Shown here in pieces: positions 2,887 through 32,000 of a stretch of 32,000 nt of DNA. Below the pieces are notes generated by a model. The model did no database searches. It had not been told where the DNA came from and saw only the letters and a program-made list of their open reading frames with translations. The translations under genes were made by a program, and so were the position numbers. Source of the stretch: Candidatus Omnitrophota bacterium (GTDB lineage: Bacteria > Omnitrophota > Gorgyraeia > 2-01-FULL-45-10); contig JAMWCX010000002.1 in assembly GCA_023818895.1 (NCBI GenBank), forward strand, positions 1-32,000, written 5' to 3'. Every line of letters starts with the position of its first letter. Position 1 is the first letter of the stretch.

Positions 2887-2914
2887 AATATATCATATAA
2901 CTAATTATTGTCAA
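2887..2914 (-). promoter_or_regulatory. Sigma70-like promoter for the leader/ATPase gene
   Basis: Minus strand: TTGACA (2914-2909), 16-nt spacer, TATATT (2892-2887). It sits in an AT-rich intergenic region about 120 nt upstream of the start codon. Confidence 0.5.
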
Positions 2915-2967
2915 GTACGTATATGTAACTTTTTTATTACTTAACTTTAGTCATCTGTCACCCTCTC

Positions 2968-4849: not shown

Positions 4850-4881
4850 CTTTTCTCCTTTGCGTTATAACTCTTTACCGC

Positions 4882-5610: not shown

Positions 5611-5659
5611 GGACTCAGGTTAAGATCGAGCTTTAGGCTAAGGCTTCCCTACCTTTGTC

Positions 5660-5911: not shown

Positions 5912-6048
5912 CTTATCCTCCTTGCTAACCGCCTCTTAACTCAAAACTCAAATTTCTAAAATTAATGCCGCCGCTTCGCCGACTTCGTATACCTATCCCC
6001 GCCACGCCAGAGGCGGCAATTTCGATCTTTGCGTTTTGATCTTTGACT

Positions 6049-7994: not shown

Positions 7995-8056
7995 AGGTCA
8001 AAACCGAAAATCAGAAACACCGGATACTGAACAAAGGAAAAATTAGAATTTTCCAT
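7991..8056 (-). CDS. Candidate 21-aa upstream ORF (MENSNFSFVQYPVFLIFGFDL) coupled to prmC
   Basis: GGAG lies 4 nt upstream of ATG 8056. Its TGA overlaps the prmC ATG (ATGA, 7991-7994). prmC has no SD of its own. Too short to appear in the ORF track. Confidence 0.25.
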   Translation of the reverse strand: MENSNFSFVQYPVFLIFGFDL

Positions 8057-8109
8057 TTGTCTCCGATTCCTGTGTTTTGAATCTATAGTTTTTGAGTCGC
8101 ATGCCGCGC

Positions 8110-9183
8110 TCACCTTATCTGTTCTAATCGCAATTTTCTTTCTTTCTCTTTAAGTGCGTCTATGATCTCGTCCAGCTCGCCTTCGAGAATACCCTCAAGG
8201 TTGTGAGTGGTAAATCCTATCCTATGGTCCGTGACGCGCCTGTCCGGAAAATTATAGGTCCTTATCTTTTCTGAGCGGTCCCCCGTGCCCACCTGCGCGC
8301 GCCGCGATCGGGCGATCTTCTCGGCCTGTTCCCGCTGCTTGATATCGAAAAGCCTCGCTCGCAATACCTTCAGCGCCTTGGCCTTATTCTTAAGCTGTGA
8401 ACGCTCGTCCTGACAAGTAACGACCATTCCTGTGGGAAGATGCGTCAGGCGCACCGCCGAATCGGTTCGGTTTACACCTTGGCCGCCGGCGCCTCCGGAC
8501 CTGAACACATCCACCTTGAGGTCTTCGGGTTTTATGACAACGTCCACCTCTTCGGCCTCAGGAAGCACCGCTACCGTAGCGGCGGAGGTGTGTATTCTTC
8601 CGCTTGCCTCGGTTTCGGGCACGCGCTGAACACGATGGGTGCCGCTTTCAAATTTCATCCTGCTGTAGACACCGCTGCCGGATATCGAGCAAATGACTTC
8701 CTTGTAGCCGCCTTTTTCAGTCATGCTAGAATCGATAAGCTCAAGTTTCCAGCCTTTCTTCGCGGCGTATTTTGAATACATACGCAAAAGATCCGCGGCA
8801 AAAAGGCTTGCCTCAAGCCCGCCGGTACCCGCGCGTATCTCGACGATGACGTTTCTCTCGCCGCCTGACTCCTCTTCAATAACAAGATCCTCAATCCGCG
8901 AGGAGGCGTCTTTAAGAGCTTTTTCGAGCCTGTGCTTCTCCTCTTCGGCCATGACGAGAAAATCATTGTCATGCGATTTGTCACCGAGCACATTCTCCAG
9001 ATCCTGAAGGTCGCGCGTAATCTTAAGGTAATTATTATACTCGTTTACAATCGGCGTAAGCGAGGCGAGCTCCTTGGCATAGGCCTGGTACTCCGCTTTG
9101 TTTGAGATAACGTTGGGGTCGGCCAGAAGCAGTTGCAGCTCTTCGTAGCGCCTCTTCTTCTCCTGGGCTATTCTTTCTATCAT
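8110..9183 (-). CDS. prfA: Peptide chain release factor 1
   Basis: GGQ motif (RSGGAGGQGVNRTDSAVRLTHLPTG) and the RF1-type P-x-T tripeptide region RVQRVPETEASGRIHTS. Confidence 0.95.
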   Translation of the reverse strand: MIERIAQEKKRRYEELQLLLADPNVISNKAEYQAYAKELASLTPIVNEYNNYLKITRDLQDLENVLGDKSHDNDFLVMAEEEKHRLEKALKDASSRIEDLVIEEESGGERNVIVEIRAGTGGLEASLFAADLLRMYSKYAAKKGWKLELIDSSMTEKGGYKEVICSISGSGVYSRMKFESGTHRVQRVPETEASGRIHTSAATVAVLPEAEEVDVVIKPEDLKVDVFRSGGAGGQGVNRTDSAVRLTHLPTGMVVTCQDERSQLKNKAKALKVLRARLFDIKQREQAEKIARSRRAQVGTGDRSEKIRTYNFPDRRVTDHRIGFTTHNLEGILEGELDEIIDALKEKERKLRLEQIR

Positions 9184-9201
9184 GTTCTATATCGAACTTG
9201 T

Positions 9202-9474
9202 TCAGGCTTTCGGACCTTCCTGTTCAGGAACGTCTTTAGCCGGGGTTTCTTCTTTTTGCTTCTTAGCGCTCTTAACTTTGCCTGCGTATCTTTTCGAGAA
9301 CTTCTCAACGCGGCCTGCGGAGTCAACCAGCTTCTGCTTTCCAGTAAAGAAGGGGTGGCACTTCGAGCAGAGATCCACATGGATATTCTGCTTCGTCGAG
9401 CGCGTGCGAATCACTTCTCCGCAGACACAGACTATCGTCGTCTCCTTGTATTCAGGGTGTATCTTGTCTTTCAT
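9202..9474 (-). CDS. rpmE: 50S ribosomal protein L31 (Zn-ribbon type, Lys-rich C-terminal tail)
   Basis: MKDKIHPEY..., Cys pairs CVC...[10 protein letters not shown]. Strong SD GAGGAGGAG upstream. Confidence 0.93.
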
Positions 9475-9582
9475 GCTCTCCTCCTCGTTTATTTCAAAAC
9501 AAAATCAAGTATTTCGGAGTTAAAATTTTTTGAATTTTAATCTTGCCGCTTTGATGTTCGATATTCAATATTTGGATTTATA

Positions 9583-10830
9583 TTACTGATTCATCGACAT
9601 CAGGAACTCCGCGTTCGTCTTGGTCTTGGAAAGTTTCTCTATAAGTAGTTGCATCGCCTCATCGGTATTCAGTTCATTAAGCACTTTTCGCATAAGCCAG
9701 ATACGTTTAAGCTCATCTGGATGCACTAAAAGCTCCTCCTTTCTTGTGTTAGAGCGCTTTATGTCGATGGCTGGATATATCCTCTTCTGGAAGAGAGTTC
9801 GGTCCAGCTGAAGTTCCATATTACCCGTACCCTTGAACTCTTCGAATATGACTTCGTCCATCCTGGACCCTGTATCGATTAGCGCCGTCGCTATTATCGT
9901 TAGACTACCGCCCTCCTCAATATTGCGCGCGGCGCCGAAGAAGCGCTTAGGCTTCTGAAGCGCGTTCGAGTCAACGCCTCCTGAGAGGATCTTGCCGGAG
10001 TGAGGAACACACGAATTGTATGCGCGCGCAAGCCGCGTTATAGAGTCAAGGAGTATAACGACATCCTTTTTGCACTCAACGAGCCTTTTCGCCTTCTCAA
10101 GAACCACCTCGGCAACCTGTATATGGCGCTCCGCCGGTTCATCGAAGGTAGAACTTATGACCTCGCCCTTCACCGAGCGCTGCATATCGGTAACCTCCTC
10201 AGGGCGCTCGTCTATAAGGAGCACTATGAGCACCACTTCCGGGTAGTTCGCTGTAATGGCGTTGGCAAACTTCTGTAGGAGCACCGTTTTGCCGCTGTAC
10301 GGGGGGGCCACGATAAGCCCTCTCTGGCCCTTGCCTACCGGCGTGAGAAGGTCCATAATCCTCATGGATATGTCCTTAGGATCATGCTCAAGCAAGTATC
10401 TTTTATTAGGATAAAGCGGAGTCAGGTTGTCGAAGAGTGTCTTGTCTTTCATTTCGTCGGGATTGCCGAGATTAACTGCCTCAACTTTAAGCAGCGCAAA
10501 ATATCTCTCGCCCTCTTTCGGCGGCCTTATCTGGCCGCTCACCGTATCTCCGGTCTGTAGGCTGAACCGCCTTATCTGTGAAGGCGATACATAAATATCA
10601 TCGGGACCCGGCAGGTAGTTGTAGTCGGGACTCCTCAGAAAACCGAAACCGTCAGGCAATATCTCGAGGACACCCTCCCCGAATATCAGACCTTCCTTCT
10701 CGGTCTTGGCTTGCAGGATCTTGAATATAAGATCCTGTTTTTTTAGGCCGCTTACGCCGTTGACGTTCAGTTCCTTGGCGAGCTTCGTCAGCGCCGCGAT
10801 CGACATAGTCTTAAGTTCTGCTATTTCCAT
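9583..10830 (-). CDS. rho: Transcription termination factor Rho
   Basis: [22 protein letters not shown]-terminus, RNA-binding DGFGFLR, and P-loop [14 protein letters not shown] 10830 has SD GGAAGGAG 5 nt upstream and overlaps the coaE stop by 10 nt. The track ORF extends to 10992. Confidence 0.92.
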
Positions 10831-19114: not shown

Positions 19115-22100
19115 CTACGCCGCCTGGAGCGCCTTCGCCTGAGCCTTATATATATCCTTGAGTTTTTCATAATCGACCGGTTCCGCCTTCGGGAGGAATA
19201 CGACTAGCCTCTTTACCTTATCGTAAGAAGCGATGAGCGGCAGTTTCGGCGGCTCCTTTCCTGCCGCAAGCTCAAGGGCAAGGCAAAGCATCTCCATAAT
19301 CCTTATATTAAGTTGTTCTAAGGATGCCGTATGCTCATCGCTGAATCTCTTCAGCTCTGAAGGATCCACGCAGGCAAGAAATGCCCGCTCATCATTATCC
19401 GTGCTCCTTAAGGGAATGAAGCTATCCGACTCAAGCGTGGTGTTGGAACCCAGCACCACTACATTCGACAACTTCGTATTCGTCCTCTCCGCCTCCTTAA
19501 TAATGACATCGGCCAGTTCGTTGGCTGGGCGGTGAACCACGATGACGTTATCAAGCCCCAACGACCGTAATGTGTCCCCCAGAGATTCTATCTCCTTGAC
19601 AAGAGAGTTGATGGCATTACGCTGAAGCGACCCTTTTTCCTCATATCCCGGTATCCAATCGGTCTCGAGGCCTATTATCAACTTCTGGTCATTGTATTTT
19701 GCGCGTCTGGCGATAGCTATAACTGAGGCGACTATCGAGTCGGCCTCAAGCCGGGTCAGACCGGCCTTCAGCCTGTTTGACAAGCCCTTTATATCGGCTG
19801 GCACGGAATCTTCCGGCATACTGTCAAGAGATCCGAGAAGGGTTTGCAGCCTCTCTTTTATCTCGGAGGTGGCCATGCCCGTATGAAGGGCTATTTCGCC
19901 CGGCGCGGAAGGAATGACCTTATGCTTGTCAACAAGCACCCGTAGAAGATTACCGTTCGTTATCATTCTTGCCCGTTCGTTATTAACGGTCCCTTCGACT
20001 ATCTCGAAAAGCCGCGCTACTTCAGGGTCCGCGTTAATGGCTGATGTCTTTTTCTCCGCCGCGGCCTCACCCATCCCCTGTCCCGGCCAGAGAAGCGCAA
20101 GCCGCAGGATGCGAGTCTGCTCTTCGGAAAGCTTATACTTCTTCTGCGCCCTCTCTATATTCTTGGCGATCACATCCGCCGGAATCTCGGACTCAGCGAG
20201 CGGTTTTACCTTCCGGAGCGCGGCCCTGAGCGCCTTCATCTCCTTCGGGACGCTGGACTCCACTATCTCAAAGGCCTCAATATGAGAAATGCTTGTATAC
20301 TTCTCGAGCTTCTTCTTGGCCTCGGATGTTATCGTCGCCAGCTCTGATGTCGTAGGCGATGTTAGTGACGGATTAGCTAAAGAAGCGTCCGGCTTCTGAC
20401 TATCGTGAATGGGCGCTTCAACCTTTCCTTGTTCAGTACCACCTTCGGACTGATCGAGTTTGCTACTTTGAGCGCGTGATTCAATCAGTATTCGCGCATG
20501 ATTCGAAACCCCCAATTCGTTGAGCTCCTCGATGTCCACAGGATCCAGCATGATGTGAATAATGCCCGCACTTTCATCGAAGTATAGTTCCGCTTGCGGA
20601 TGGCGCGATGTCTTCATAAACGTGCTATTCCACGCCCACTGCTGGTGGTAATCAAACCATCTCAGGTTGAAAAGCGCGTCAACGTCATACCGGTTTTTAT
20701 CCGTCGCCAACCAGCATTGAACACCCCAGTTCTTCGTCTTGGGGCTTGCATAGACGCGAAGGACAATATCACCCACCATCTTTTCTTTGACAATAACGTC
20801 TTTATCGCTGATAAATCTACTGCTGTCAGGCGCAATATCGACCCATCCTTTTAATAAATCCATCATGTCCGCGCCCAGCATCATCGTCGCTTTATCCAGT
20901 CCAAAATCCTTGCGCAACTGTTCTTTCGACTTATCAAAACCACTACTATCGTCACGCTGACCTTCTCTTCCGAACTGCCCCGGCTTCTGCGCATCGGCTA
21001 TTTCGCCCGCCGAGTCAACCCCCTTCTCTATCTCCTCGATCACGTCGGAGATGCGGACTCTGTTCATCTGTTTTTTGTCTTTTTGCGCCTCCTTCAGGTA
21101 CGGCAGCGCCTTCTCGCCCATCTTCAAAAGCGCCTGCCTCGCGTCCTCTACCTTGCGATAATCCTTTCCGACAAGGTCGGTAATGATGAGCTGTATCTTA
21201 TTAGAATCAATGGCACCTACCGCCGCGTCGTCGGGGAGAACATCCCCAACTCGCAGAACCTTATCGTGAAGGCTGGCAAAACGCTCTTTCAATCTCGTAA
21301 AGTGACGCCATAAAATATAGGATATGGCGCCGATGAAGAACACGCTTCCGGCCAGCGCAACCACCGAAACTAAGCCGGCTGAAAGAAAGGCGGTCGCCAT
21401 CCCTGCCAAGCCTGTGATCGCGATGAAGTCTATGGAAAAAAGCCTTTCCCTGCCGGAGGGCGCCCGCTGGCGGGCCGCCTTGATAATACTCCTGAGTATC
21501 ACCCTGTCATCGGCGTTTGATACCTCGCAATCCTTCATCTTTTCCAGATAGGGAACGCAAGAGCTATCTAGATCATCGGCCGCTATATCCATGATATACC
21601 TGCGCATCAGCACAGATGATTCTGTTGGATAGATATCCTCCGATACCGCCTTGATAAAAGATGCGGGATATGTATTCTTCAATATATGCTTAAGGCGCAT
21701 GGTTTCAAGATAGAGTGCCTTGCTGTATAATTCAGGCGACACAAAACCGTCTGCTGCGCGCGTAAACTTGTTTATCTCCGTTAATTTCTTGAAAGGATAC
21801 CCTGCTATCGCCGTCGCCCCGCCCAAGAAAAACGCGCATGCCGCCAATAACGGCGCCTGCGCCGTCACTATGGCATAGATACCGCCCGCAACGCAGGTAA
21901 GCGGCAAGACCAGCTGTGCGATTGCCGTGTTTATAAGCGCTATGCGTATCATCAAAGACGGGTAATCACTCGCGTTTTTCATTACCGTTCGGTGGGCTAT
22001 GCCGAGGAACATCTTCCCCAAGACAAACGAGATGACGGTGATCAACCCGTAATACAATAATGCCGGCATTGCAAGCAAGCCGCTCACAGCAAAGGCATCC

Positions 22101-24355
22101 AATGAATATGCCTTATGTTTTTCCAGCGCAGACTTCTCTTCCGCTGCAACCATTTGGCTTCGCGGCTTTTTTATATTCCGCCAGCCCAAATATGCGCAGG
22201 CGCTTAAAACCAAGGCGGCTATCGCTGCGATGGTGCTATAGGCTCCGGCGGACGATACCAATGCCAGAGGCTCTGTAAAAGTCCCCCCGAACGCCAACGC
22301 CGGCACCAGCAAAAGGAAAGCGATTCCGGCCGATTTTTTCAAAACCGGCGGTATAAGAGGCCTGTTTGCGTTCCTTTGCCAATAGCTCGATTGTTCGGTC
22401 GCGGACTGTTGACCGGACTGCGAATAAACTGTAGCGTAGCCGGAGAGGAAGGGAGCTATCAGCATTAAAAGGACGGGGGTAATATTCTTTATATTCCCGG
22501 CCGTTTCGCTTATGGAGGATTCTTTTTGACCACTCTCTGCGGCAACATCCCCTTTTCCTCTGACGATTAATTTCCCCGGAACCGCGACTGAAGTCTGTAC
22601 CTCCCACCGGTGAGTACGCTTATTAGGCTTATATTCGTGATGCACGTAGGGCGGGGTGTATATCACAGAATAATCTTTTCCTTCCGCTATACATTGAGCT
22701 ATAATCTCTGCCTGCCTCTCTGTTAAGGAAGTATGACAATCGAACGGCGGATAACCCGGCATAGGCTCATGGGTAAGTAAAGTTAAATAATAGCGCAGAG
22801 GCGCTAACCGCTTATCATGTATAAGTAGACGCGCAAGATCTTGCGCGGCATTATAGCGGACATCCCTCTCGTCGTCAGCCAGGTCTTTTATAAGCTTTAG
22901 CATCGCCGCAGGGTTTACGACCTTCTCGCGGGATTCTGCGGACGCAGCTTTTTTGGCTTGCTCGGCCCCATCATCGCTGCCGGGCAACTGATCTACAAAT
23001 TCACCTTCTATGGCAACCTCCAACCGGCCCGGTTGATCCAATTTTTCCTCATACCAATATGTAGTCTCCCAAAAATCTGTTACCCTCTCATCATGTGTCA
23101 GGGGTCGGCTATATTTTACCTGGAAAGATTTTCCTTCTACAAGACATTGAGCTATAAAAGCGGCCTCCCGCCTCGTCAGTGGCACATAGTACAAAGGATC
23201 GTAACGACTAACCGCCACTGTCAAAAAATACCCACTCAGAGGTATTGGGAGGGGCAAATTTTTCAATTTCAAAAGTATTGTTGCCGCATGTCGCCGGACA
23301 CCCTCATCGCTGTCGGCCAAATTTAATACGAGAGATTTGATCTCATCCTTAATTTGCGGGTCCTGCGAAAGAATTGCTTTGTCTATTCTTGCTGCTCTGC
23401 GCTTTTCTATCCTTGCCTTGACAGCCTCAGGCGCATTCCTGTCAATGAGGAAATCTATTACAAAGACTACGACCAATATCACTCCTATGTAATATAACGA
23501 AGATGTGATTAGCGATTCCAACTCATTCCCACCTACTGTGGCCAGCATAATCATCCCGTTTAAAAGGCCGAACGAATGAAAAACGCCGGAGCCGGTGGCG
23601 GGAGAACCGGGCCTATTTTCGCCTCGAGAAAGCCTGGCGGACGGCTTGGCATCGCGGGAACCCTCTGGTTCTCCCCGCTTTTGGGATCCATCCTCCCCCG
23701 CCTGTTCCGTTACGGCGTTGCGGGGCGTGGATGATTCGGAAACCGCTTTCAGGCCTTCAGAAATATCTTTCAACCGCTCTTGAGATGCGGATGCAGGTTC
23801 TTTCCTGTAATCGTCCCTTACTACCTTTATTACAAAGGTGTCCGACAGCCCCTTTATCTCATGGCCTTTAAGAGCCGCGGATAAAGGATTAGTCTTAGGT
23901 GTAACTTGAATAATATATCGATGGCCGTTTCGCTCGAACGGTATTAGCAACACGCCATTTTTGTCAAGACGTATATCCGAAAGGGGCGTGTTTCTCTCCT
24001 TACCGTCAACAAGCGTTACTTTTGAAAGGTCTATGTCTCCGATCTTGTCAGCTACCCCGTATATCGGATTTTTTAATACTTCTTCCATAAGCCTCATAGG
24101 CAAAGGACCTATGCCGACATTCTTATCTCCGAAAGCGTATTTGGCTATATCGAGGGAAAGAATAAAAAGGCTGCAGGCCTTCTTTACTGCCTCTGTAGCC
24201 GAGGGGTCCTGAAATATCGAATGGGTAGCAAGACACGATGGGGCTGATGGATTTTCCGGAGGATTGGCCCACGCTACATCAAGCGCAAGAAATGAGATTA
24301 CCAACAAGATCGATATCGATTTGAACCACAAATATTTTTTCATGCTATAAATCAT
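19115..24355 (-). CDS. Giant (1746 aa) multi-pass membrane protein with HEAT-like units; function unknown
   Basis: Uninterrupted ORF with SD GAGGAGAG 5-7 nt upstream. N-terminal signal/anchor MKKYLWFKSISILLVISFLALDVAWA. About 10 further hydrophobic segments (residues about 258-304, 625-645, 674-724, 753-855, 973-1016). HEAT-like units (LADSDEGVRRHAATILLKL, LADDERDVRYNAAQDLARL, DYRKVEDARQALLKMGEKALPYL). I recognise no catalytic motif. Confidence 0.85.
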   Translation of the reverse strand: MIYSMKKYLWFKSISILLVISFLALDVAWANPPENPSAPSCLATHSIFQDPSATEAVKKACSLFILSLDIAKYAFGDKNVGIGPLPMRLMEEVLKNPIYGVADKIGDIDLSKVTLVDGKERNTPLSDIRLDKNGVLLIPFERNGHRYIIQVTPKTNPLSAALKGHEIKGLSDTFVIKVVRDDYRKEPASASQERLKDISEGLKAVSESSTPRNAVTEQAGEDGSQKRGEPEGSRDAKPSARLSRGENRPGSPATGSGVFHSFGLLNGMIMLATVGGNELESLITSSLYYIGVILVVVFVIDFLIDRNAPEAVKARIEKRRAARIDKAILSQDPQIKDEIKSLVLNLADSDEGVRRHAATILLKLKNLPLPIPLSGYFLTVAVSRYDPLYYVPLTRREAAFIAQCLVEGKSFQVKYSRPLTHDERVTDFWETTYWYEEKLDQPGRLEVAIEGEFVDQLPGSDDGAEQAKKAASAESREKVVNPAAMLKLIKDLADDERDVRYNAAQDLARLLIHDKRLAPLRYYLTLLTHEPMPGYPPFDCHTSLTERQAEIIAQCIAEGKDYSVIYTPPYVHHEYKPNKRTHRWEVQTSVAVPGKLIVRGKGDVAAESGQKESSISETAGNIKNITPVLLMLIAPFLSGYATVYSQSGQQSATEQSSYWQRNANRPLIPPVLKKSAGIAFLLLVPALAFGGTFTEPLALVSSAGAYSTIAAIAALVLSACAYLGWRNIKKPRSQMVAAEEKSALEKHKAYSLDAFAVSGLLAMPALLYYGLITVISFVLGKMFLGIAHRTVMKNASDYPSLMIRIALINTAIAQLVLPLTCVAGGIYAIVTAQAPLLAACAFFLGGATAIAGYPFKKLTEINKFTRAADGFVSPELYSKALYLETMRLKHILKNTYPASFIKAVSEDIYPTESSVLMRRYIMDIAADDLDSSCVPYLEKMKDCEVSNADDRVILRSIIKAARQRAPSGRERLFSIDFIAITGLAGMATAFLSAGLVSVVALAGSVFFIGAISYILWRHFTRLKERFASLHDKVLRVGDVLPDDAAVGAIDSNKIQLIITDLVGKDYRKVEDARQALLKMGEKALPYLKEAQKDKKQMNRVRISDVIEEIEKGVDSAGEIADAQKPGQFGREGQRDDSSGFDKSKEQLRKDFGLDKATMMLGADMMDLLKGWVDIAPDSSRFISDKDVIVKEKMVGDIVLRVYASPKTKNWGVQCWLATDKNRYDVDALFNLRWFDYHQQWAWNSTFMKTSRHPQAELYFDESAGIIHIMLDPVDIEELNELGVSNHARILIESRAQSSKLDQSEGGTEQGKVEAPIHDSQKPDASLANPSLTSPTTSELATITSEAKKKLEKYTSISHIEAFEIVESSVPKEMKALRAALRKVKPLAESEIPADVIAKNIERAQKKYKLSEEQTRILRLALLWPGQGMGEAAAEKKTSAINADPEVARLFEIVEGTVNNERARMITNGNLLRVLVDKHKVIPSAPGEIALHTGMATSEIKERLQTLLGSLDSMPEDSVPADIKGLSNRLKAGLTRLEADSIVASVIAIARRAKYNDQKLIIGLETDWIPGYEEKGSLQRNAINSLVKEIESLGDTLRSLGLDNVIVVHRPANELADVIIKEAERTNTKLSNVVVLGSNTTLESDSFIPLRSTDNDERAFLACVDPSELKRFSDEHTASLEQLNIRIMEMLCLALELAAGKEPPKLPLIASYDKVKRLVVFLPKAEPVDYEKLKDIYKAQAKALQAA
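22547..23353 (-). repeat. Intragenic tandem duplication of a module of about 115 aa within the giant ORF
   Basis: Module 1 (residues about 335-452, nt 23000-23353) and module 2 (residues about 481-603, nt 22547-22915) align at LAD..(D/E)VR..AA..L..L, Y(F/Y)LT, LT.R(E/Q)A..IAQC..EGK...V.Y..P..H. Confidence 0.7.
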
Positions 24356-24404: not shown

Positions 24405-24443
24405 TAAAAAAGCCAGGCTAACATTCTTGCCATCAGCCCGGCT
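24405..24443 (-). terminator. Rho-independent terminator
   Basis: Minus-strand RNA: AGCCGGGCU (24443-24435), 15-nt loop, AGCCUGGCU (24419-24411). This gives a 9-bp stem with one G-U pair, followed by UUUUUU (24410-24405). Confidence 0.7.
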
Positions 24444-24528
24444 ACAACAAAAAATAGTTGTTCAGACTTTCTTTTGTGCTTACACCTATTTATCACGTTC
24501 TTTATTTTTCTACTCCTAACATTTAGGT
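24405..24528 (-). ncRNA. Candidate sRNA of about 120 nt, or 3'UTR-derived RNA, or a 5' leader of the giant gene
   Basis: It is bracketed by a near-consensus promoter (24535-24563) and the intrinsic terminator (24405-24443). There is no ORF longer than 6 codons with an SD. An additional small hairpin ACAAC/GTTGT lies at 24444-24461. Confidence 0.3.
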
Positions 24529-24534
24529 GAAAGA

Positions 24535-24563
24535 AGTATAACATAGACATTTAGCTCTGTCAA
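24535..24563 (-). promoter_or_regulatory. Near-consensus sigma70-type promoter immediately downstream of the BNR gene stop
   Basis: Minus strand: TTGACA (24563-24558), 17-nt spacer, TATACT (24540-24535). It begins 12 nt after the stop codon at 24575. Confidence 0.5.
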
Positions 24564-24574
24564 GTTTATATAGC

Positions 24575-26143
24575 TTACTTTTTTTTATTTAACTTTGAAA
24601 ATTCAGATAGGTAATTGCCAGTTAGGTCATCAATAGCCTGAGCCAGTTCTTTTACCCTTAACTCCTTCTCAAAACGCAACCGGCTATCTTTAGGAGGCGA
24701 TGACATCAGCTCAAACTGCAGTCTTTTTCTCTCGTAATAAGCCCTGCGCAGGTCATCGAGTATGTCATTTCGCAACTGTGTATTTAGCCTAGACCTTACA
24801 TCGATACTCGTCTGATCAGTCGACCATATTAGGTCTGCGAGATCCCAGGAAACCGAGACATCCCACCCTTTGGAGATATCGTCAGGCCCGGCAACTACAT
24901 AGTCCTTCGTCGCGCTAGTGTATATCTCATAGGTATTAGACATGTCAATATCCATGCCGAAACTGACTTTAGGCATAAGGGCCTTTAGCCGGGCCTCGCC
25001 TCTCCATTTCTTTATTTTTTCCGGGCTGACCTCGTTATATTCAATGGCCGCCTTCTGCAGTTCAGCGAACGACGGCTCCCCGTCATAGAGTATACTCAAC
25101 GAACTTAAATTTGTCTCGATGTTGACGTGACTATCGTAAATAATCTCCGGGTCCTCTACTCTGTAAAAGCCCTTATCAGTTAATGCCAATACCGACTTTT
25201 CATCTTTCCCATCAAATACCACGATTCTTGCGCTTACTGATCTATCTGTCCCCTTATACAGCTCAATCCATTTACTCTTCGCAGGGCAATACCCGAAAAC
25301 CCCTTTAGACGTAGCGCAGAATATCTTATCGGATATAGAAGAAACTAGCATATGGTTTATGTGGCCAGCGAGACCGGCGCTTGGAAGAAAGCCCCATGTC
25401 TTGCCGAGATCGTCCGAATACAGCACCTTTTCGCCAATAGACGCATAGACCCTATTGTTTTTAATAGCAAGGCAGCTGACGCTTGATGCCTGATCTTCGC
25501 CATCTTCCGGAATATCAGCATCCTCCTCTATTCCGGCTGCCTCATTTGCGCAGACGCGCACATAGATCCTATCCCAGGCATAAGGTCCGTCTTTCGATAT
25601 GTATAAGCCGCCATCACTGGACGCATATATATGCCCCTGGTTTATGGCGATACAATTCACAGCTCTGTTCTTCAGGACCCCGCTTATGTCTTGCCAGCTT
25701 ATCCCACCATTCTCGCTCAGGAAAACGCCTCTGCGAGCACCAATAATCAGCCTACTGGCGCCATGTTTGGACATATCTATGCATAGTATATCGCTTTTTT
25801 CCGGGATTATCGTTTTGAATACATTCCTCCAGCTTCTTCCTGAGTCCTGAGACCTAAAAAGGCCTCTTTTTGTGCCCACAAAGATCTTGCCGTTACATCC
25901 AAGCATAAAGTTGATCTCATTTCCTCCTGGAGGCAGCGTAAAAACGGTTTGCCAGTTATCCTTTGTGGCCCTGTATACCTCTGAGCGCGTCGCAAGAAAA
26001 ACCTGACCGCCGTCAGCGACTATCGAACGCGCGCCGATATCGCGGATAGCTCCGCCTTTATCCGCAAAAAGCTCCTGTGAATAGGCCGTTATCGCGGGCA
26101 AAAGCAATGTTTGGATTATTACTAAGACAATTCGTGTCTTCAT
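24575..26143 (-). CDS. Secreted BNR/Asp-box beta-propeller protein with an uncharacterised C-terminal domain
   Basis: Signal peptide MKTRIVLVIIQTLLLPAITAYS. Four S-x-D-x-G-x-x-W boxes: SQDSGRSW, SENGGISW, SKDGPYAW and SDDLGKTW. The C-terminal ~170 aa combine beta-strand-like sequence (WDVSVSWDLADLIW) with a long helix (RSRLNTQLRNDILDDLRRAYYERKRLQFEL). SD GAGGGAG. Confidence 0.8.
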   Translation of the reverse strand: MKTRIVLVIIQTLLLPAITAYSQELFADKGGAIRDIGARSIVADGGQVFLATRSEVYRATKDNWQTVFTLPPGGNEINFMLGCNGKIFVGTKRGLFRSQDSGRSWRNVFKTIIPEKSDILCIDMSKHGASRLIIGARRGVFLSENGGISWQDISGVLKNRAVNCIAINQGHIYASSDGGLYISKDGPYAWDRIYVRVCANEAAGIEEDADIPEDGEDQASSVSCLAIKNNRVYASIGEKVLYSDDLGKTWGFLPSAGLAGHINHMLVSSISDKIFCATSKGVFGYCPAKSKWIELYKGTDRSVSARIVVFDGKDEKSVLALTDKGFYRVEDPEIIYDSHVNIETNLSSLSILYDGEPSFAELQKAAIEYNEVSPEKIKKWRGEARLKALMPKVSFGMDIDMSNTYEIYTSATKDYVVAGPDDISKGWDVSVSWDLADLIWSTDQTSIDVRSRLNTQLRNDILDDLRRAYYERKRLQFELMSSPPKDSRLRFEKELRVKELAQAIDDLTGNYLSEFSKLNKKK

Positions 26144-26204
26144 CTTGTTCTCCCTCAGTTTTAACTAAAATCTAACAGGATTTGGGCCGTCAGCGGTTTA
26201 TTCT

Positions 26205-26232
26205 ATTATACAATTATTTAAATTTTAGTCAA
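26205..26232 (-). promoter_or_regulatory. Near-consensus sigma70-type promoter for the BNR gene
   Basis: Minus strand: TTGACT (26232-26227), 16-nt spacer, TATAAT (26210-26205), about 60 nt upstream of ATG 26143. Confidence 0.6.
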
Positions 26233-26264
26233 TTATTTTTTGCTAATTTATCAAATTTATTTAT

Positions 26265-26296
26265 AAAAAAATAGGCCCTCCTTCTACTGCAGGGCC
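26265..26296 (-). terminator. Rho-independent terminator ending the efflux operon / small ORF
   Basis: Minus-strand RNA: GGCCCU (26296-26291), 11-nt loop, AGGGCC (26279-26274), then UAUUUUUUU (A-run 26265-26271 on the plus strand). It lies about 20 nt after the small-ORF stop. Confidence 0.7.
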
Positions 26297-26316
26297 GTAT
26301 TTTCATTTTTAGAATT

Positions 26317-26469
26317 TTACTTGCAGCAGCCTTTACGTTTTGTTATCCTCCTTAGCGCCTTCTCCATCCTAGCCTTTGCTTGTTCGGGCGTTTTACCCTC
26401 AGTAAGACATCCGCAACAGAGGGCGGCATAACCGCGCCTATTCTTTATTTTGAAAACCTTTGTCTTCAT
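26317..26469 (-). CDS. Unlisted 50-aa basic Cys-rich protein, possibly a HicB/UPF0150-like fold
   Basis: My translation: MKTKVFKIKNRRGYAALCCGCLTEGKTPEQAKARMEKALRRITKRKGCCK. SD GGAAGG lies just upstream and a terminator 20 nt downstream. GY.A....GC.T.G.T.E.A resembles the HicB N-terminal pattern (GYVA.VP.LPGC.TQG.T.EEA). Below the ORF-track size cutoff. Confidence 0.55.
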   Translation of the reverse strand: MKTKVFKIKNRRGYAALCCGCLTEGKTPEQAKARMEKALRRITKRKGCCK

Positions 26470-26511
26470 ACCTTCCTTTCTGTCAGTCTTAGGCTCGCGT
26501 ATGTGAAGATC

Positions 26512-26802
26512 CTAAGTGACCTCCGTCAAATCCCAAACAAACGCCTTGATACCTTCCTTGCCCAGCACGCTACGCAACTTTCCTATACAGCTAATAAGCT
26601 GTTTAGCGTCGGTATCGGTGCATGAAACATACATAACATTGTTAAGGCCGGGCCATATATCATTTCCGAGATGGGTACCCGAAGATTCGCCCTTGCCGTA
26701 AACGCTTGTGAACTTAGTATAACTCTTAAGAGCGCAGTTAGTCAATACTTCCATCACTTCTTCGTCGATCGCCATATTATAAGCTATCATCACCATCTTC
26801 AT
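26512..26802 (-). CDS. Small P-II-like, transporter-associated protein (96 aa)
   Basis: MKMVMIAYNMAIDEEVMEVL...YGKGESSGTHLGNDIWPG...NVMYVSC...GIKAFVWDLTEV follows a beta-alpha-beta / loop / beta-alpha-beta pattern. ATG 26802 has SD AGGAGG 6 nt upstream and overlaps the RND stop (ATGA). The track ORF's 46-aa N-terminal extension lies inside the RND gene. Confidence 0.7.
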   Translation of the reverse strand: MKMVMIAYNMAIDEEVMEVLTNCALKSYTKFTSVYGKGESSGTHLGNDIWPGLNNVMYVSCTDTDAKQLISCIGKLRSVLGKEGIKAFVWDLTEVT

Positions 26803-29800
26803 AGCGCGCCTCCTACCCTCTTCCGCCGATCCTTCTTTAAACGCGATTCTACCGCCGCATATAGCGTAGGCACAAAAAGCATTGTGACGAACGTGGATAC
26901 CGAAAGCCCCCCGAGCATGGTAATGCCAAGCGGCTGCCACATCTCTGAGCCCTCACCCCGTGAAAACGCCATAGGCAGAAGACCTGCTAGCGTCGTAAAC
27001 GTCGTCATGAGGACCGGCCTGAGGCGCTGCCTCCCACCCTCGGTAACCGCCTCTAGCATGGAATAGCCGCGCGCGCGCAATATTCCGATATAGCTCACCA
27101 GGACGATCGCGTTATTGACAACGATGCCCATGAGCATGACTATACCGAGAAAGGTGAGCACGCTAAGCGTTGTTCTTGTAAGCACAAAAGCAAGGATAAC
27201 GCCGGTGAAGGTGAACGGCACCGCGAACATAACAATAAACGGATCAATGAGTGACTCAAACTGCGCGGCCATAACCATATAGACAAGTATGATTCCCAGT
27301 ATCAAAAGGAGAAAAAGGTCTCTAAATGCCTTCTGCTGCTCTTCCGCCTCCCCTCCGACATTTATCATTATATCAGCTGGAAGCACAATTTTCGATATGC
27401 GCGATTTCAGGTCCTCAACTATCTTTCCAGGCGAGCGCCTGAAAGCATTGCACGATACGGTAACCACACGCTCGCGATTCTGCCTCTCAATAGAAACAGG
27501 TCCGCTGAGCTCGCGAACCTTGATGATATTGCCGAGCCGTATCTTCTCACCGCTTAGAGGCGAGACCACAAACAAGTTCTCTATATCTTCGGGTTTCGCG
27601 CGGGAAGATTCCTCAAGTCTCACATATATATCATAAGTTTCCCCTTTTTCGCGGTAACGTGTTGCTGTGGATCCCTCGATGAACGTCTTGGCCGTATCTG
27701 CTATCGTGCCCATGTCTATGCCGAGAACGGCCGCCTTTTCGCGATCAACCTCTATCCTCAACTCCGGCCTGTTTATCTCTCTGGAAATGCTCACGTCAAC
27801 TGCGCCAGGAGTCTTCTCCATTATATCCTGTATAATTTTGGCCACGCGGTCAGTTTCCTCAAACGAATGGCCTATGACCTCTATCTGTATGGCCTTGCCG
27901 CCCATGCCGGTTATGGCCCTCCCTATGGGGTTTCCAGTAGAAATGTCGACTTTAAGCGCCCCCGGTATCTTAGCTATTTCCCTACGTATCCTCTGCCCTA
28001 CTTCTTCAACTGAAGCCTTCCTTTCTGTCTTTGAGACAAGCTTAAGCCCAGCGGCAACCACATGGCTTCCAGAGGGACCGCCAACTATCCTGGGGCCTCC
28101 GCGCATTGTCTCCCCGCTACGAACGTAGAAGGTCTTTGCCTCAGGTACCTTCATCGCAAATATCTCCTCGATGCGCCGTGCCACCTTGTCCGTCTCCTCA
28201 ACCCTTGTACCAAGCGCAAGCTCCACTGTAATCCTAATGTCTCCGGTGTCCTCTTCCGGAATAAATTCGTTTCCTACAAAACCTGTCAGGAAAAAACTCG
28301 CCATAAAAACCAACAAAAAACCGATAATAACCGTTTTTTTGCGACCCAAACACCAGGCCAGCGCACGCGAGTAACGCTCTTCCATCCTGCCGAACCACTT
28401 CTCTGAGGCATCATAAAACGCAACCAGCCACCTCTGCTTGAAGCGCACCTTCTCACCTTGCTGACTTGCGGTAAGCCATTTTGAGCACAGCATTGGGCTG
28501 AAGGTCGCGGCGGTGAAAAGCGACGCCGTTAAGGTGATAGTAATAACCATGGCAAGTTCGCCAAACATGATGCCTACCACTCCCGGGATAAGAAGCATGG
28601 GCAAAAACACGACGACCGTCGTGAGCGTCGAGGCGGCTATGGACAGGAACATCTCGGACGTGCCGAAGATCGCGGCTTCCTGCGGCCGCTGGCCACGCTC
28701 TATATGCCGCACGGTGTTATCCACAACCACTATAGCATTGTCAACCACCATGCCACAGGCTATGGCGAGCGAGAACAGGCTTATAACATTAATGGTCTTA
28801 CCCCCAAGAAAGAGGTAAATGAAAGCTATAAGAAGCGAAAACGGTAAAGTAAGCGCGATTATTATGCTCGGCTTGAACTGCCGTAGGAAAAACCACACAA
28901 CCAATATAACCGCCGTAATTCCTATAAACAGCGTTGACTTGAGCGAATGGAGCGTGTTAACGATATCCTGCGATGTATCGAATAGGATATGCATGCTTAT
29001 GTCGGCTGGCAGGGTCTTCGAAATCTGCTCGAGTTTTTTCTTCACTGTCTCAGCAACCTCAACGGTGTTAGTACCTGTCTGTTTCTGCACCATAAGCATG
29101 AGCGCCGGCTTCTTGTTAAACCTGAGTATGGTGGTAACCTCACGGAAGCCATCCTCGACTCTCGCGACATCCTTTAAGTAGACATACTTTCCTTCGCGCT
29201 TACCAAGGATAACCAGATTAATCTCATCGGGGCTGGCAAATTCCCCCGGCAGCCTGACCAGGTATTCGGTAAGACCTGTCTTGATATTACCAACGGGCTG
29301 AGTAATGTTCGCCCGCTTCAGCGCATCGCGTATATCCAATATCGAAAAACCGTAACCCTCGAGCTTTTCTCTGTCGATCCATACATTTATCTGCCGCTCC
29401 AGACCGCCTATGAGCTGCACGGTGCCTACCCCAGGTATCTGGCGCAGCGGATCTCCGACTCGCTTGTCGATCATATCATAGAGTTCGGGGTAGCTCTGTT
29501 CGGCGGTGACCCCTAGGAATATTATCGGTATCATGGCAGTGTTGAATTTGAATATGAAGGGATTGTCCATCTCGTCAGGTATGTCAGGCAGGAACCTTTT
29601 GGCAAGGTCGATCCTGTCGCGGATATCGTTCGAAGCCTCGTCGAGGTTTGTGCCCCAATCAAACTTGAGCGTTATCCGAGACGAACCTTCTGAAGAACGA
29701 GAGGTTATCTTGTCAAGACCGGGCGTGGTAGCAAGTTGATTCTCTAAAGGCTCGGTCACCCGCACTTCAACATCTTCGGCGCTCGCGCCCGGATAATTGG

Positions 29801-29945
29801 CTATAACCGTTATCGCGGGCGGTTCTATTTCCGGCATCATGTCTATGCCCAACCGCGAAAGGCTGTACAAAGCGATGATGATGATCGCTGAGAAGATCAT
29901 AAGGTTAGTAACAGGCCTTTTTACGCCGAATTGCGGTAAATTCAT
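26799..29945 (-). CDS. RND efflux transporter permease (AcrB/HAE1-like)
   Basis: 1048 aa. N-terminus MNLPQFGVKRPVTNLMIFSAIIIIALYS..., with typical two-fold TM and large periplasmic loop architecture and conserved VVDNAIVV/VVNNAIVLV TM4/TM10 motifs. Confidence 0.95.
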   Translation of the reverse strand: MNLPQFGVKRPVTNLMIFSAIIIIALYSLSRLGIDMMPEIEPPAITVIANYPGASAEDVEVRVTEPLENQLATTPGLDKITSRSSEGSSRITLKFDWGTNLDEASNDIRDRIDLAKRFLPDIPDEMDNPFIFKFNTAMIPIIFLGVTAEQSYPELYDMIDKRVGDPLRQIPGVGTVQLIGGLERQINVWIDREKLEGYGFSILDIRDALKRANITQPVGNIKTGLTEYLVRLPGEFASPDEINLVILGKREGKYVYLKDVARVEDGFREVTTILRFNKKPALMLMVQKQTGTNTVEVAETVKKKLEQISKTLPADISMHILFDTSQDIVNTLHSLKSTLFIGITAVILVVWFFLRQFKPSIIIALTLPFSLLIAFIYLFLGGKTINVISLFSLAIACGMVVDNAIVVVDNTVRHIERGQRPQEAAIFGTSEMFLSIAASTLTTVVVFLPMLLIPGVVGIMFGELAMVITITLTASLFTAATFSPMLCSKWLTASQQGEKVRFKQRWLVAFYDASEKWFGRMEERYSRALAWCLGRKKTVIIGFLLVFMASFFLTGFVGNEFIPEEDTGDIRITVELALGTRVEETDKVARRIEEIFAMKVPEAKTFYVRSGETMRGGPRIVGGPSGSHVVAAGLKLVSKTERKASVEEVGQRIRREIAKIPGALKVDISTGNPIGRAITGMGGKAIQIEVIGHSFEETDRVAKIIQDIMEKTPGAVDVSISREINRPELRIEVDREKAAVLGIDMGTIADTAKTFIEGSTATRYREKGETYDIYVRLEESSRAKPEDIENLFVVSPLSGEKIRLGNIIKVRELSGPVSIERQNRERVVTVSCNAFRRSPGKIVEDLKSRISKIVLPADIMINVGGEAEEQQKAFRDLFLLLILGIILVYMVMAAQFESLIDPFIVMFAVPFTFTGVILAFVLTRTTLSVLTFLGIVMLMGIVVNNAIVLVSYIGILRARGYSMLEAVTEGGRQRLRPVLMTTFTTLAGLLPMAFSRGEGSEMWQPLGITMLGGLSVSTFVTMLFVPTLYAAVESRLKKDRRKRVGGAL

Positions 29946-30045
29946 ATTGCAGATTCTTTCACGCTATTATTATATAAAACGACCTTAATCTCAGCGCTTT
30001 CCCATGCCCACTACAATCTTTACCACGTTGATCAAAAATGTTGGG

Positions 30046-30927
30046 CTATTCCTCCGCCGTCACAGATGCCCCATCGCGCAGCTTCTGCTGGCCCATAATT
30101 ACAACCGACTCTCCGACTTTAAGACCATCTATGACCTCGACATAGGCCCCCCGACGCGCGCCAAGCCTTACCTGCCGTAAACGCGCCTTGCCGTCCTCCA
30201 CCACATAAACATAAAAAGGCTCGATGCGCCCAATCACGGCCTCTTTGAGGATGGCTGGATTCTGCCTGTGTTCCTCGATGATAAGACTAACTTTCGCGAA
30301 CATGCCGGACTGAAGCCGGTGGTCCGGATTATCGATGACTATCTCGATAGGGGCGCTGCGCGTCTGCAAATCAATCACAGGGCTTATATTTTGAACATAT
30401 CCGAGAAACTCTTCTTTTGGATAGGCGTCAACTCTGACTATCGCTTTCTGTCCTATCCGTATGCTGGGAAGATAGGTCTCCGGCACTTTAAGATATATCT
30501 CCGCCTTGTCCATATCAGCAACGAGCGCTATAGGTGTCTGCATCGTTACACTTGATCCGATATCGACGTATATACGTCCTATCCTGCCGCTAAGCGGCGC
30601 CTCAACAGGTGCCTTTTCGAATTTCAAGCCAACCTCATCCCGGTCGATATACGCTATCGGATCGCCTTTAGCAACAGTATCGCCTTCCTCTTTGACTTTT
30701 TCTATTATTTTTCCGGTCACCTTAGGATATACAATAGCCTCATCCTGCCCCTTTATATCGCCAACGTACTCAAGTGTTCTCGAAACGTCTTCCAGCGACA
30801 CCTTCATAACCTTTACCGGCATGGCCTCATTGCCAGCTTTAGTCTGCCGTCCTTTTTCGCAACCGCTTGTACCAACCGCTATTATGCATAAGCATATTAT
30901 ATAAACGATACTGCGCTTCCGCTTCAT
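30046..30927 (-). CDS. RND efflux periplasmic adaptor (MFP/HlyD family) lipoprotein
   Basis: Signal plus Cys (IIAVGTSGC), a lipoyl/beta-barrel-type sequence (GDTVAKGDPIAYID...APLSGRIG), and the operon position between the OMF and RND genes. Confidence 0.9.
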   Translation of the reverse strand: MKRKRSIVYIICLCIIAVGTSGCEKGRQTKAGNEAMPVKVMKVSLEDVSRTLEYVGDIKGQDEAIVYPKVTGKIIEKVKEEGDTVAKGDPIAYIDRDEVGLKFEKAPVEAPLSGRIGRIYVDIGSSVTMQTPIALVADMDKAEIYLKVPETYLPSIRIGQKAIVRVDAYPKEEFLGYVQNISPVIDLQTRSAPIEIVIDNPDHRLQSGMFAKVSLIIEEHRQNPAILKEAVIGRIEPFYVYVVEDGKARLRQVRLGARRGAYVEVIDGLKVGESVVIMGQQKLRDGASVTAEE

Positions 30928-30937
30928 AACATTTCTC

Positions 30938-32000
30938 CTACTCTATCTTTATATTGTCGTATATTAGAGTCATGCCTTCGGCCAAGGCAAGTTCGGCGAT
31001 GGCCTTATTGTATTCTATGACGGCCTCGGCATAGCTAACCTCTGCTCGCGCCAACTTCTCCTGATAATCTATTATGTCGTGCGTGGAAACAAGCCCCGCT
31101 CTGAATCTCGCTTCTTGCGCCTCGTAATTCTTCTGTTCGGCATCCCTGTTCTTGATGCTTGCCTCAAGCATCCTGTATCTAATATCAACTTCGCGCACGG
31201 CGCTCCTCACTTCAAGTATTATCTTCTGCTCCATCCTCTTGAAAGCAAGCAGCGCCTGCTGTTTCTCAAGCTTAGATTTCTGATACTTACCCTTGGCATC
31301 ATCATTTCCAAGCGGCACCGTAACGCTTACGCCTACCTTCCAGTCATTATACATACCGCTACCCAGTATGCCCATGTCTTTCTCAAAGTTCTTAGCCAGG
31401 CCGTTATAGCCCCAACTTCCGACTAAATCTACGATCGGAAGCATGCCGTTCTTATTGTAGATAACGGTGATATCCTTGTTCTTCAAGTCTATCTTCGCCG
31501 CCTCGTAGTCCGGCCTGTGGCTGAAGGCCTTATCAAGTGAGTCTATACTATCAAGCTCTTTCTTCTCATACGCAAGCGCATCTAAGGGCTCAATATTGGC
31601 GCTCCACAATTCCACATCATTGACAAGGTTTGTGATGAATTTAAGGTTATCCTCAGCAAGTTTCATAACTCCTTCGGCGCCCGCGACCGCTTTTTCGAAA
31701 CGGGCGACTTCCGCTTCGGATTGCAAGAGATCCACATTCGATGCTATTCCTTTGGCATATTTTTCCTTGTTGATATTATACAGGTCCTCAACGCGCTTGA
31801 GCGAAACCACAGCCGTCTGGTACTGCGCACGGCTGTACTGGAAATCATAATAGGCCTTCTTCACGTCTGTAAGCGTCTTCATGACATCTTTCTTGAATTC
31901 CTGGATAGATTTTAGCTTATTGTTCTTCGCGATCAAAAAGTCCGCCTGAGTTACAACTATGCCGCCTCCTCTCATAAGGGGCTGTGTAACCGTTACCGCC
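30938..32000 (-). CDS. TolC-family outer membrane efflux protein, partial (5' end beyond window)
   Basis: Two helical-repeat halves typical of OEP proteins (Y..A...L..A....A.A.Y patterns). The frame remains open upstream of the track's Met (31975) to the window edge, and 345 aa is too short for a complete TolC. Confidence 0.85.
   Translation of the reverse strand, partial: AVTVTQPLMRGGGIVVTQADFLIAKNNKLKSIQEFKKDVMKTLTDVKKAYYDFQYSRAQYQTAVVSLKRVEDLYNINKEKYAKGIASNVDLLQSEAEVARFEKAVAGAEGVMKLAEDNLKFITNLVNDVELWSANIEPLDALAYEKKELDSIDSLDKAFSHRPDYEAAKIDLKNKDITVIYNKNGMLPIVDLVGSWGYNGLAKNFEKDMGILGSGMYNDWKVGVSVTVPLGNDDAKGKYQKSKLEKQQALLAFKRMEQKIILEVRSAVREVDIRYRMLEASIKNRDAEQKNYEAQEARFRAGLVSTHDIIDYQEKLARAEVSYAEAVIEYNKAIAELALAEGMTLIYDNIKIE

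Follow-up and report, generated by a model that had tools for sequence, protein, structure and literature searches.

Why do two proteins that are encoded about 22 kb apart, and that differ greatly in size, begin alike? This question is raised by a 32,000-nucleotide stretch of Candidatus Omnitrophota DNA (assembly GCA_023818895.1, contig JAMWCX010000002.1, positions 1 to 32,000), which we refer to as the window. A giant open reading frame (ORF) and a small ORF in the window both start with a leader whose hydrophobic segment ends in D[IV]AWA; these two ORFs, and an ATPase-like ORF next to the small one, all lie on the minus strand. A preliminary description of the window, made from the letters alone, had regarded this leader together with a following FQDP motif as a dedicated sorting or processing tag for a family of very large envelope proteins. 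In the following, we argue that both ORFs probably carry one Omnitrophota-specific, Sec-type export leader of ~30-32 residues, which would be cleaved and have an additional specialised role.

The giant ORF (19115-24355, 1746 aa) opens with the 30-aa leader MIYSMKKYLWFKSISILLVISFLALDVAWA (24266-24355), followed by NPPENPSAPSCLATHSIFQDP. The n-region of this leader contains K6, K7 and K12, the h-region spans 13 residues and the c-region reads DVAWA; signal peptidase I is predicted to cut after A30. Read from 2763, the small ORF opens (V IQ) behind a GTG and continues with the 32-aa leader MIEYYSPGKIIFMKSVATVLVVMFVWYDIAWA (2659-2754), which carries K9 and K14 in its n-region and is followed by GDMFYFQDP. 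Its likely start is the ATG at 2754, preceded by a GGGTGA ribosome-binding site. The uncharged h-region cores of the two leaders, SISILLVISFLAL and SVATVLVVMFVWY, are 13 residues long each and run into D-[IV]-A-W-A, which a six-frame scan of the window found only at 24266-24280 and 2659-2673. BLASTP aligned the two leaders with 12/28 identical and 20/28 similar residues, and returned no significant match between the two window proteins outside them. When the giant leader was compared with a hidden Markov model (HMM) of 12 leaders of the small ORF's class (class F, see below), from which it had itself been excluded, it scored 27.5 bits with a per-sequence E of 1.4e-10. The uniqueness of the motif and this score bear out the claim that the two distant ORFs share an N-terminal leader. 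The two copies differ at synonymous sites (GAT GTA GCG TGG GCC in the giant ORF vs GAC ATC GCG TGG GCA in the small one, for D-[IV]-A-W-A), so their likeness has been kept at the level of protein rather than DNA and does not stem from a recent copy. Recent gene conversion, or an element acting at the DNA or RNA level, was considered as a source of the likeness and ruled out by the synonymous differences and the lack of an Rfam match.

We then determined how widely the leader occurs. A profile of five leader sequences (A3), run with HMMER against 1.84 billion representative proteins, matched 35 proteins (clusters) at E <= 1e-3 and 17 at E <= 1e-10, and all 35 matches lie at residues 1-32 of the protein. 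Most of them are class F proteins, while P0034 and P0035 carry different mature sequences. Two contig scans, the metagenome one using a 13-leader alignment, yielded 46 loci, 38 from metagenomes and 8 from Omnitrophota genomes. The preliminary description had proposed an HMM scan for further carriers in relatives, and such carriers are indeed found.

By sequence comparison, the carriers fall into at least five classes that have only the leader detectably in common. Most belong to class F (MIEYY..WYDIAWA-GDLFY), with EF-hand/TSP3-like repeats. Class M (MLDWQNKKWIKVIAVILVITFLSYDIAWA-[VTI]DFSP) includes the complete 2689-aa protein of locus L026 with a Peptidase_C39 domain, and class G, recognised by ..[NYH]P[PDN] behind AWA, comprises polytopic HEAT/TPR proteins such as the window giant and L014a. 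The remaining two classes are L014b (..SFIFMDIAWA-FPDS, >896 aa, with a Glucosamine_iso-like domain) and L030 (..SFISYDVAWA-YPDK, >790 aa); P0034 is a further unrelated cargo. Two different carriers stand in tandem in L014, the class G protein L014a (565-7791, 2409 aa) and then L014b (7944-10649). BLAST alignments of ~90-115 aa had hinted that the classes also share a homologous N-terminal domain past the leader. This was ruled out with hhalign: once the leader was removed, the next 130 residues gave a probability of ~0.1% among classes F, M and G, which limits the similarity between classes to the leader. Among single carriers, P0002, on a 669-bp contig from the European Nucleotide Archive, joins an F-type leader and N-terminal module (N-module) in frame to a BRCT-like C-terminus (PF00533) as in NAD-dependent DNA ligase, and probably represents a short chimeric assembly. 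An ORF of >3241 aa lies directly before an F-type carrier in L044.

The carriers are, with one exception, very large. For 28 non-redundant carriers the downstream sequence would allow an ORF of at least 800 codons, and 27 of them do have one of 800 aa or more; 22 of these are still open at the contig end, reaching up to >3,365 aa, and the only exception is the small ORF of the window. Since these loci were picked for carrying the leader, the counts show that the leader implies a giant ORF and not the converse, and many carriers are cut off by contig ends. They support the proposed association with very large proteins, which belong to several families that lack detectable similarity behind the leader. 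To assess specificity, the 32-position leader HMM was run locally on the 5,446 six-frame ORF segments of >= 40 aa in the window and 49 loci (~0.5 Mb in total); it matched only carrier N-termini. The other secreted proteins of the window, namely the outer-membrane factor (OMF), the membrane fusion protein (MFP) and the resistance-nodulation-division (RND) pump of an efflux set and a BNR-repeat protein, gave no match. The signal peptide of the BNR protein, MKTRIVLVIIQTLLLPAITAYSQ, is unrelated, and the HlyD-like MFP has a lipobox (...GTSGC). The restriction of the HMM matches to carrier N-termini and the recurrence of the leader in relatives support the earlier suggestion that the likeness exceeds that of generic signal peptides. 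They also bear on a chance match between two hydrophobic signal peptides, which the similar composition of signal peptides and the commonness of A-x-A ends would favor. The likeness, however, is specific, recurrent and always N-terminal, and it is absent from other signal peptides in the ~0.5 Mb of related DNA; we regard chance as vanishingly improbable and the resemblance of the window leaders as real.

The leader consensus reads M-I-x(3-6), K..[WFIL].K, a hydrophobic core of 13 residues with an invariant F at its end, and x-x-[YL]-D-[IV]-[AST]-W-[AS]. The K..x.K n-region is conserved in all classes, and the F/D/W/A pattern is kept across classes whose leaders are otherwise 40-55% identical. 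Among 72 distinct leaders, position -3 is A in 59, S in 11 and T in 2, and position -1 is A in 69 and S in 3; position -2 is mostly W but also G, R or M, and +1 is G, A, V, Y, T, I, S or H and never P. A charged n-region, a short h-region with a polar c-region, small residues at -3 and -1 and the lack of proline at +1 are the features expected of a Sec substrate of signal peptidase I, and the conserved A-x-A pattern fits the ordinary form of that enzyme. Signatures of other routes were absent. Neither window leader contains RR or matches an NCBIfam twin-arginine translocation (Tat) signal; a lipobox is lacking, with N or G at +1 in the window pair and no Cys at the h/c boundary; and the prepilin/class III pattern is missing, since the conserved polar motif comes after the hydrophobic stretch and G|F/M...E does not occur. 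Similarly, we found no Pfam match to ESPR (PF13018) at E <= 0.01, the leaders being 30 and 32 aa long, and for YSIRK (PF04650) and KxYKxGKxW (TIGR03715) there was no Pfam match and no relevant NCBIfam match at E <= 1.

Ordinary signal peptides normally drift faster than the mature parts of their proteins. Here, the reverse was observed, the leader being more conserved than the body: across 26 distinct class F proteins, the leader averages 64% pairwise identity per column and the GDLFY segment behind it 70%, compared with 27-48% for the remaining N-module and 22-37% for the body. Conservation above that of the mature parts, combined with presence on at least five unrelated classes of 0.8 to >3.4 thousand residues (kaa), points to more than generic targeting. 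The leader would be a Sec-type signal peptide: it would initiate the translocation of a very large envelope protein, beginning with its first extracytoplasmic part, and signal peptidase I would most likely remove it after A-W-A, as the residues around the predicted site suggest. Beyond this, and much like ESPR and YSIRK-type signal peptides, it could determine which targeting route is taken, set the pace of the nascent giant chain or hold it at the translocon, or serve as a recognition site for a specific partner.

Several observations weigh against this interpretation. Residues W12 to A32 could form a 21-residue helix with aromatic belts, that is, a signal anchor, and GDLFY, which lies past the proposed cut, tops the leader in conservation within class F and fits an uncleaved membrane-interface element. 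The main rival accordingly holds that the leader is an uncleaved N-terminal signal anchor (a type II transmembrane helix, ~W12-A32) that tethers the giants to the inner membrane, with F, D, W and GDLFY mediating specific contact with a partner or with each other. It is favored by the aromatics at both ends of the hydrophobic stretch, by the invariant F and D inside it, by the 70% conservation of GDLFY behind the putative cut, and by published topology surveys, whose consulted passages describe long Omnitrophota proteins as mostly membrane-associated (46% with transmembrane (TM) helices only, 39% with a signal peptide as well as TM helices, termed SP+TM). On the other hand, the uncharged core between the last K and the D has only 13 residues, which is typical of cleaved signal peptides, and the small residues at -3 and -1 in 72/72 leaders, the variable -2 and the absence of P at +1 would be unnecessary for an anchor. 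We therefore think an anchor unlikely, while treating it as a serious competitor of the cleaved export leader. A further objection is that one ancestral N-terminus may have been spread by recombination, so that conservation could partly reflect recent spread and not function. No neighboring gene is universal among the compared carrier loci. Finally, the first 260 aa of the giant had no homolog in an index of 5.8 billion proteins, which lacked even the giant itself, and the giant was not found among the 1.84 billion representative proteins searched with the leader profile either; class G consequently rests on L014a/L015 and the fragment P0032.

The recombination argument leads to another rival, in which the leader is an ordinary signal peptide with no special role and one ancestral 5' gene end was copied or recombined onto different bodies of a mosaic, rapidly evolving family. 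F-type bodies are indeed mosaic and repeat-rich, insertion sequence (IS) elements flank two carriers, carriers occur in tandem in L014 and the window copy is truncated exactly at the end of its N-module. Against this, in the 26 proteins, whose bodies are 22-37% identical, conservation of the leader is about double that of the mature sequence next to it, the F/D/W/A pattern persists where leaders have otherwise diverged to 40-55% identity, and the synonymous differences between the window leaders indicate that copying was not recent. We judge this scenario improbable, clearly more so than the anchor.

The same comparison of leaders disposed of FQDP as part of the tag. The motif occurs at 24203-24214 in the giant ORF, 18 residues past the predicted cut, and at 2632-2643 in the small ORF, 6 residues past it (both on the minus strand), and nowhere else in the six-frame scan of the window. 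However, among 72 distinct 25-residue post-leader tails, FQDP is present in only 2, both of them those of the window proteins. At the corresponding site the homologs of the giant read LVGQVNP (P0032) and SLLQQTV (L014a), and the closest relatives at the position of the small ORF read GDLFTMTVKPS (L008) and GDLFYIVHAPA (L013). Other F-type proteins have GDLFY, a variable stretch and a Pro a few residues on, for example GDLFYTFGNPP. The codons of the two window copies differ (TTT CAG GAC CCC vs TTC CAG GAT CCC), and shuffling of the 25-residue tails produced any common 4-mer in 0.5% of trials. Two copies of FQDP in one genome are a mildly surprising coincidence or a peculiarity of this genome, and the motif lies outside the conserved element.

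The giant ORF is a complete member of class G. Behind the leader follow an extracytoplasmic domain (~31-280), a TM segment (279-309) with a K/R-rich cytoplasmic flank, and a cluster of TM-like segments (625-850 and 975-1015); the C-terminal domain is conserved in L014a. Seven K/R within the 20 residues after TM 279-309 place residues 31-280 outside the cytoplasm, as expected behind an N-in/C-out leader. A module of ~110 residues is duplicated at ~337-445 and 485-598 (35% identity, pairwise E 2e-13), shows the pattern LAD..VR..AA..L...PL..Y.LT....LT.R.A.IAQC..EGK..V.Y and probably has a HEAT-like start; in the homolog L014a (2409 aa), Pfam detects HEAT_2 and TPR. L014a shares 31% identity with the window giant in the N-terminal 155 aa and 38% in the C-terminal 300 aa (E 5e-59), and P0032 is a fragment homologous to the N-terminus of the giant. 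A metagenome scan with an alignment of the giant and P0032 gave no confirmed locus. Neither window carrier ORF matches Pfam at E <= 0.01 or a relevant NCBIfam model, and neither has a relative of solved structure in the PDB.

The second carrier had been described as a large ORF leading into the ATPase-like gene, and this view does not hold. The small ORF (2371-2754, minus strand) has only 127 aa, or 130 aa from 2763, and consists of the leader and the N-module of the F-type family (VTNYD..KLLPS..FAPGY..KHEDIIKQ), ending just where homology to the F-type proteins ends (...KHEDIIKQ). We searched its family across contigs, with one genome per species, and found 8 loci, all in Candidatus Omnitrophota metagenome-assembled genomes (MAGs), one of which (L008) is labelled Planctomycetia. 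In 8/8 loci, the counterpart of the small ORF forms the first ~110-125 residues of a very large ORF of 1121 to >1899 aa, and most of these eight large ORFs run off contig ends. F-type proteins are mutually homologous along their length and internally repetitive, with EF-hand/TSP3-like calcium-binding repeats, and the window small ORF matches these giants over their first ~112-127 residues only. Between polA and rnhB, L008 and the window are collinear (60-90% protein identity), and L008 has a giant gene of >1487 aa exactly where the small ORF lies, which makes the small ORF its positional counterpart. By position and homology, we therefore take the small ORF for a truncated copy of an F-type giant gene and not for the head of the ATPase-like gene.

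The ATPase-like ORF (2-2233, minus strand, reaching the window edge) is not a carrier. It lies in a different frame from the small ORF and starts at ATG 2233 (MTKLAV), as in its database entry, and the same Met begins its only homolog, P0037 (MSKLAV, 43% identity). In the 819-aa open frame, GTGAGKT stands at residue 258 and DEAH at 402, and there is no TM segment. We found no similarity to any carrier body and no Pfam match even at E <= 10, including SecA_DEAD (PF07517); P0037 shows a faint ResIII match, and the AlphaFold model of the ATPase-like ORF (pLDDT 43) was too poor for a fold search. The ATPase-like ORF is a separate gene with its own conserved Met start. Its database copy, P0036 (744 aa, on a 442,820-bp contig), stops exactly at the first bases of the window (1-4), so the window edge is probably a contig end and the gene incomplete. 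We also considered that the small and the ATPase-like ORF are one frameshifted gene, given that the ATPase-like frame is open from 2458 and overlaps the end of the small ORF. We consider this the less likely reading, because P0037 begins at the same Met, the ATPase-like ORF lacks carrier-body similarity, the F-type family has no convincing continuation in the ATPase frame (best E 0.02), and a signal peptide placed straight onto a P-loop ATPase without TM segments is topologically senseless. Upstream of ATG 2233, the ATPase-like frame stays open through 75 codons, in which GTG 2254 is the first start codon. This stretch (2234-2458) overlaps the last 29 codons of the small ORF, for which a frameshift, an indel from the assembly or a remnant could account.

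Between rnhB and the small ORF lies a shortened IS transposase (3011-3697, plus strand, 228 aa, helix-turn-helix and rve_3), which is divergent to the small ORF and extra relative to L008. A full-length IS transposase of 370 aa is present in L015 (2640-3749, minus strand), 57% identical to it over the C-terminal 138 aa. The L015 transposase lies divergently upstream of a class G giant gene, beside an IS200-like Y1 transposase.

Following characterization of the carriers, we considered their surrounding genomic context. The window is a piece of bacterial chromosome and encodes rnhB, rplS, trmD, murA, prmC, prfA, rho, coaE, glgA, polA, glgE, a GT4 glycosyltransferase and the OMF-MFP-RND efflux set. 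The OMF (OEP), MFP (HlyD), RND (AcrB) and BNR-repeat genes (24575-31975) lie upstream of the giant ORF on the same, minus strand. The BNR-repeat gene and the giant ORF are separated by a 219-nt spacer, which contains, on the minus strand (24411-24563), a near-consensus promoter-like site (24563-24535, TTGACA-17-TATACT with TG) and, ~90 nt past it, a 13-bp terminator-like hairpin with a T-run (24443-24411), ahead of the start codon at 24355. No Rfam family matches the spacer, and its layout would fit a terminator of the BNR gene or an attenuator-type 5' leader. In L040, a homolog of the BNR protein (1-780, 59% identity) precedes an F-type leader ORF that occupies the position held by the class G giant in the window. 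This leader ORF (1184-1366) ends after 61 aa and is another apparently truncated carrier.

Approximately 15 F-type loci (L001, L003, L004, L005, L007, L017, L021, L024, L025, L031, L032, L033, L035, L039 and L048, based on the upstream 10 kb) lie directly downstream of an OMF-MFP-RND-RND set on the same strand, in which the pumps are 64-87% identical while the giant gene diverges. The two RND genes of this five-gene arrangement resemble an MdtB/MdtC-like pair, and MAG SO_2017_LW4_139 holds two whole arrangements (L001 and L007). Such loci could indicate a two-step route, in which Sec moves the giants across the inner membrane and the upstream OMF-MFP-RND(-RND) system then hands them over or anchors them. 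The presence of both cassettes in one MAG and the position of the window giant, which also follows an OMF-MFP-RND set, agree with this idea. Nevertheless, RND pumps are not known to move proteins, the window RND is just 30-33% identical to the pumps of the F-type loci, the giant ORF is set apart from the genes upstream of it by a terminator-like hairpin, and other carriers follow unrelated genes. Among the latter are rnhB, lepA-lepB-pgsA-plsY, genes for TPR/PMT glycosyltransferases, an FtsA-like gene, ETF and alr. Since inherited synteny of one orthologous locus would explain the pattern, we consider a two-step route very improbable and retain the RND link as a low-probability functional lead.

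A different neighborhood is found in class M. Four loci (L026, L027, L029 and L022) have a divergent upstream set of three ORFs of ~400, 500 and 320-330 aa, conserved in 4/4. In L026, the one locus for which this set was scanned with Pfam, the three ORFs correspond to FIST, a GAF histidine kinase and a response regulator-GGDEF protein, with a TPR/PMT-like protein further upstream. This composition, which is also among the unrelated neighbors that speak against the two-step route, hints at c-di-GMP-linked regulation near class M giant genes.

The comparison with known systems helps to place the leader. YSIRK-G/S and KxYKxGKxW are motif-bearing Sec signal peptides of Gram-positive surface proteins and specify where or how these are exported. 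As in Omnitrophota, one signal peptide is common to unrelated large surface proteins, but the motif lies in the n-region, whereas the Omnitrophota leader is strongest at the h/c boundary, and the Omnitrophota host is of diderm type (OMF/RND genes) unlike the Gram-positive bacteria with YSIRK. LapA-like giant RTX adhesins have no Sec signal; they leave the cell through an ABC-type type I system by means of a C-terminal signal, and LapG cuts them at a TAAG-type site. They share with the carriers a conserved N-terminal element on giant calcium-binding repeat proteins encoded beside an OMF-MFP transporter; nonetheless, LapA secretion features were not seen in Omnitrophota carriers, in which the adjacent pump is RND-type. 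ESPR is similar in being a conserved signal-peptide variant of one bacterial group that occurs in different families of very large secreted or surface proteins. It differs in being a 25-residue extension before a normal signal peptide (>50 aa in total); the Omnitrophota leader has 30-32 aa and no extension, its conservation extends to the h- and c-regions (F, D-[IV]-A-W-A), and phylum and cargo are different. ESPR does not set the Sec targeting route and has reported effects on export rate and on periplasmic transit or later biogenesis (PMC8151025). By analogy with ESPR or YSIRK, the leader may represent an undescribed, lineage-specific signal-peptide variant.

The closest published counterparts are the giants of the same phylum, for which the consulted passages report signal peptides and TM helices together with C39, SecA_DEAD and TSP3/dockerin architectures (10.1101/2023.11.21.568195; 10.64898/2026.06.07.730766). 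According to these passages, long "SP+TM" proteins resemble the carriers in phylum, in combining a signal with TM helices, in Peptidase_C39, HEAT and TSP3/Ca-binding repeats, in GGDEF and histidine-kinase neighbors, and in contig-breaking length. The window giant has the features of this group: it is an Omnitrophota multi-kaa ORF with an N-terminal signal, later TM helices and a HEAT-like domain type. In size, the carriers (0.8-3.4+ kaa, the window giant at 1746 aa being at the small end) differ from the >30 kaa extremes of Omnitrophota giants. As presented in the consulted passages, "SP+TM" is a topology class based on predicted signal peptides only (West-Roberts et al. 2023, 10.1101/2023.11.21.568195; 10.64898/2026.06.07.730766). 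The searched passages of the two reports (10.1101/2023.11.21.568195; 10.64898/2026.06.07.730766) contain no mention of a conserved leader across architecture classes, and a literature search for the motif string returned unrelated words only.

How far the leader is specialised bears on the stronger proposal that D[IV]AWA marks a dedicated, phylum-specific sorting signal read by its own machinery; candidates would be a specialised peptidase or a holdase acting at the translocon, or else the OMF-MFP-RND-RND cassette found ahead of many carriers. No dedicated sorting or processing machinery was identified at the examined loci, and we regard this proposal as possible but doubtful.

In the consulted passages, Omnitrophota are reported to encode the longest predicted proteins known, and the route of these proteins to the envelope is described as open (10.1101/2023.11.21.568195; 10.64898/2026.06.07.730766). 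A highly conserved leader that is specific to giants and common to unrelated architectures would offer a testable entry point to their export. In practical terms, the leader HMM, which picked out only giant-gene starts in ~0.5 Mb, is a cheap annotation marker that helps locate the true 5' ends of giant genes in fragmented assemblies and also flags truncated copies such as the 127-aa ORF of the window. If the leader is indeed a dedicated sorting signal, it would control the way in which proteins thousands of residues long are exported, retained or released in Omnitrophota, and would provide the first sequence handle on giant-protein export in the phylum as well as a marker for its giant surface proteome.

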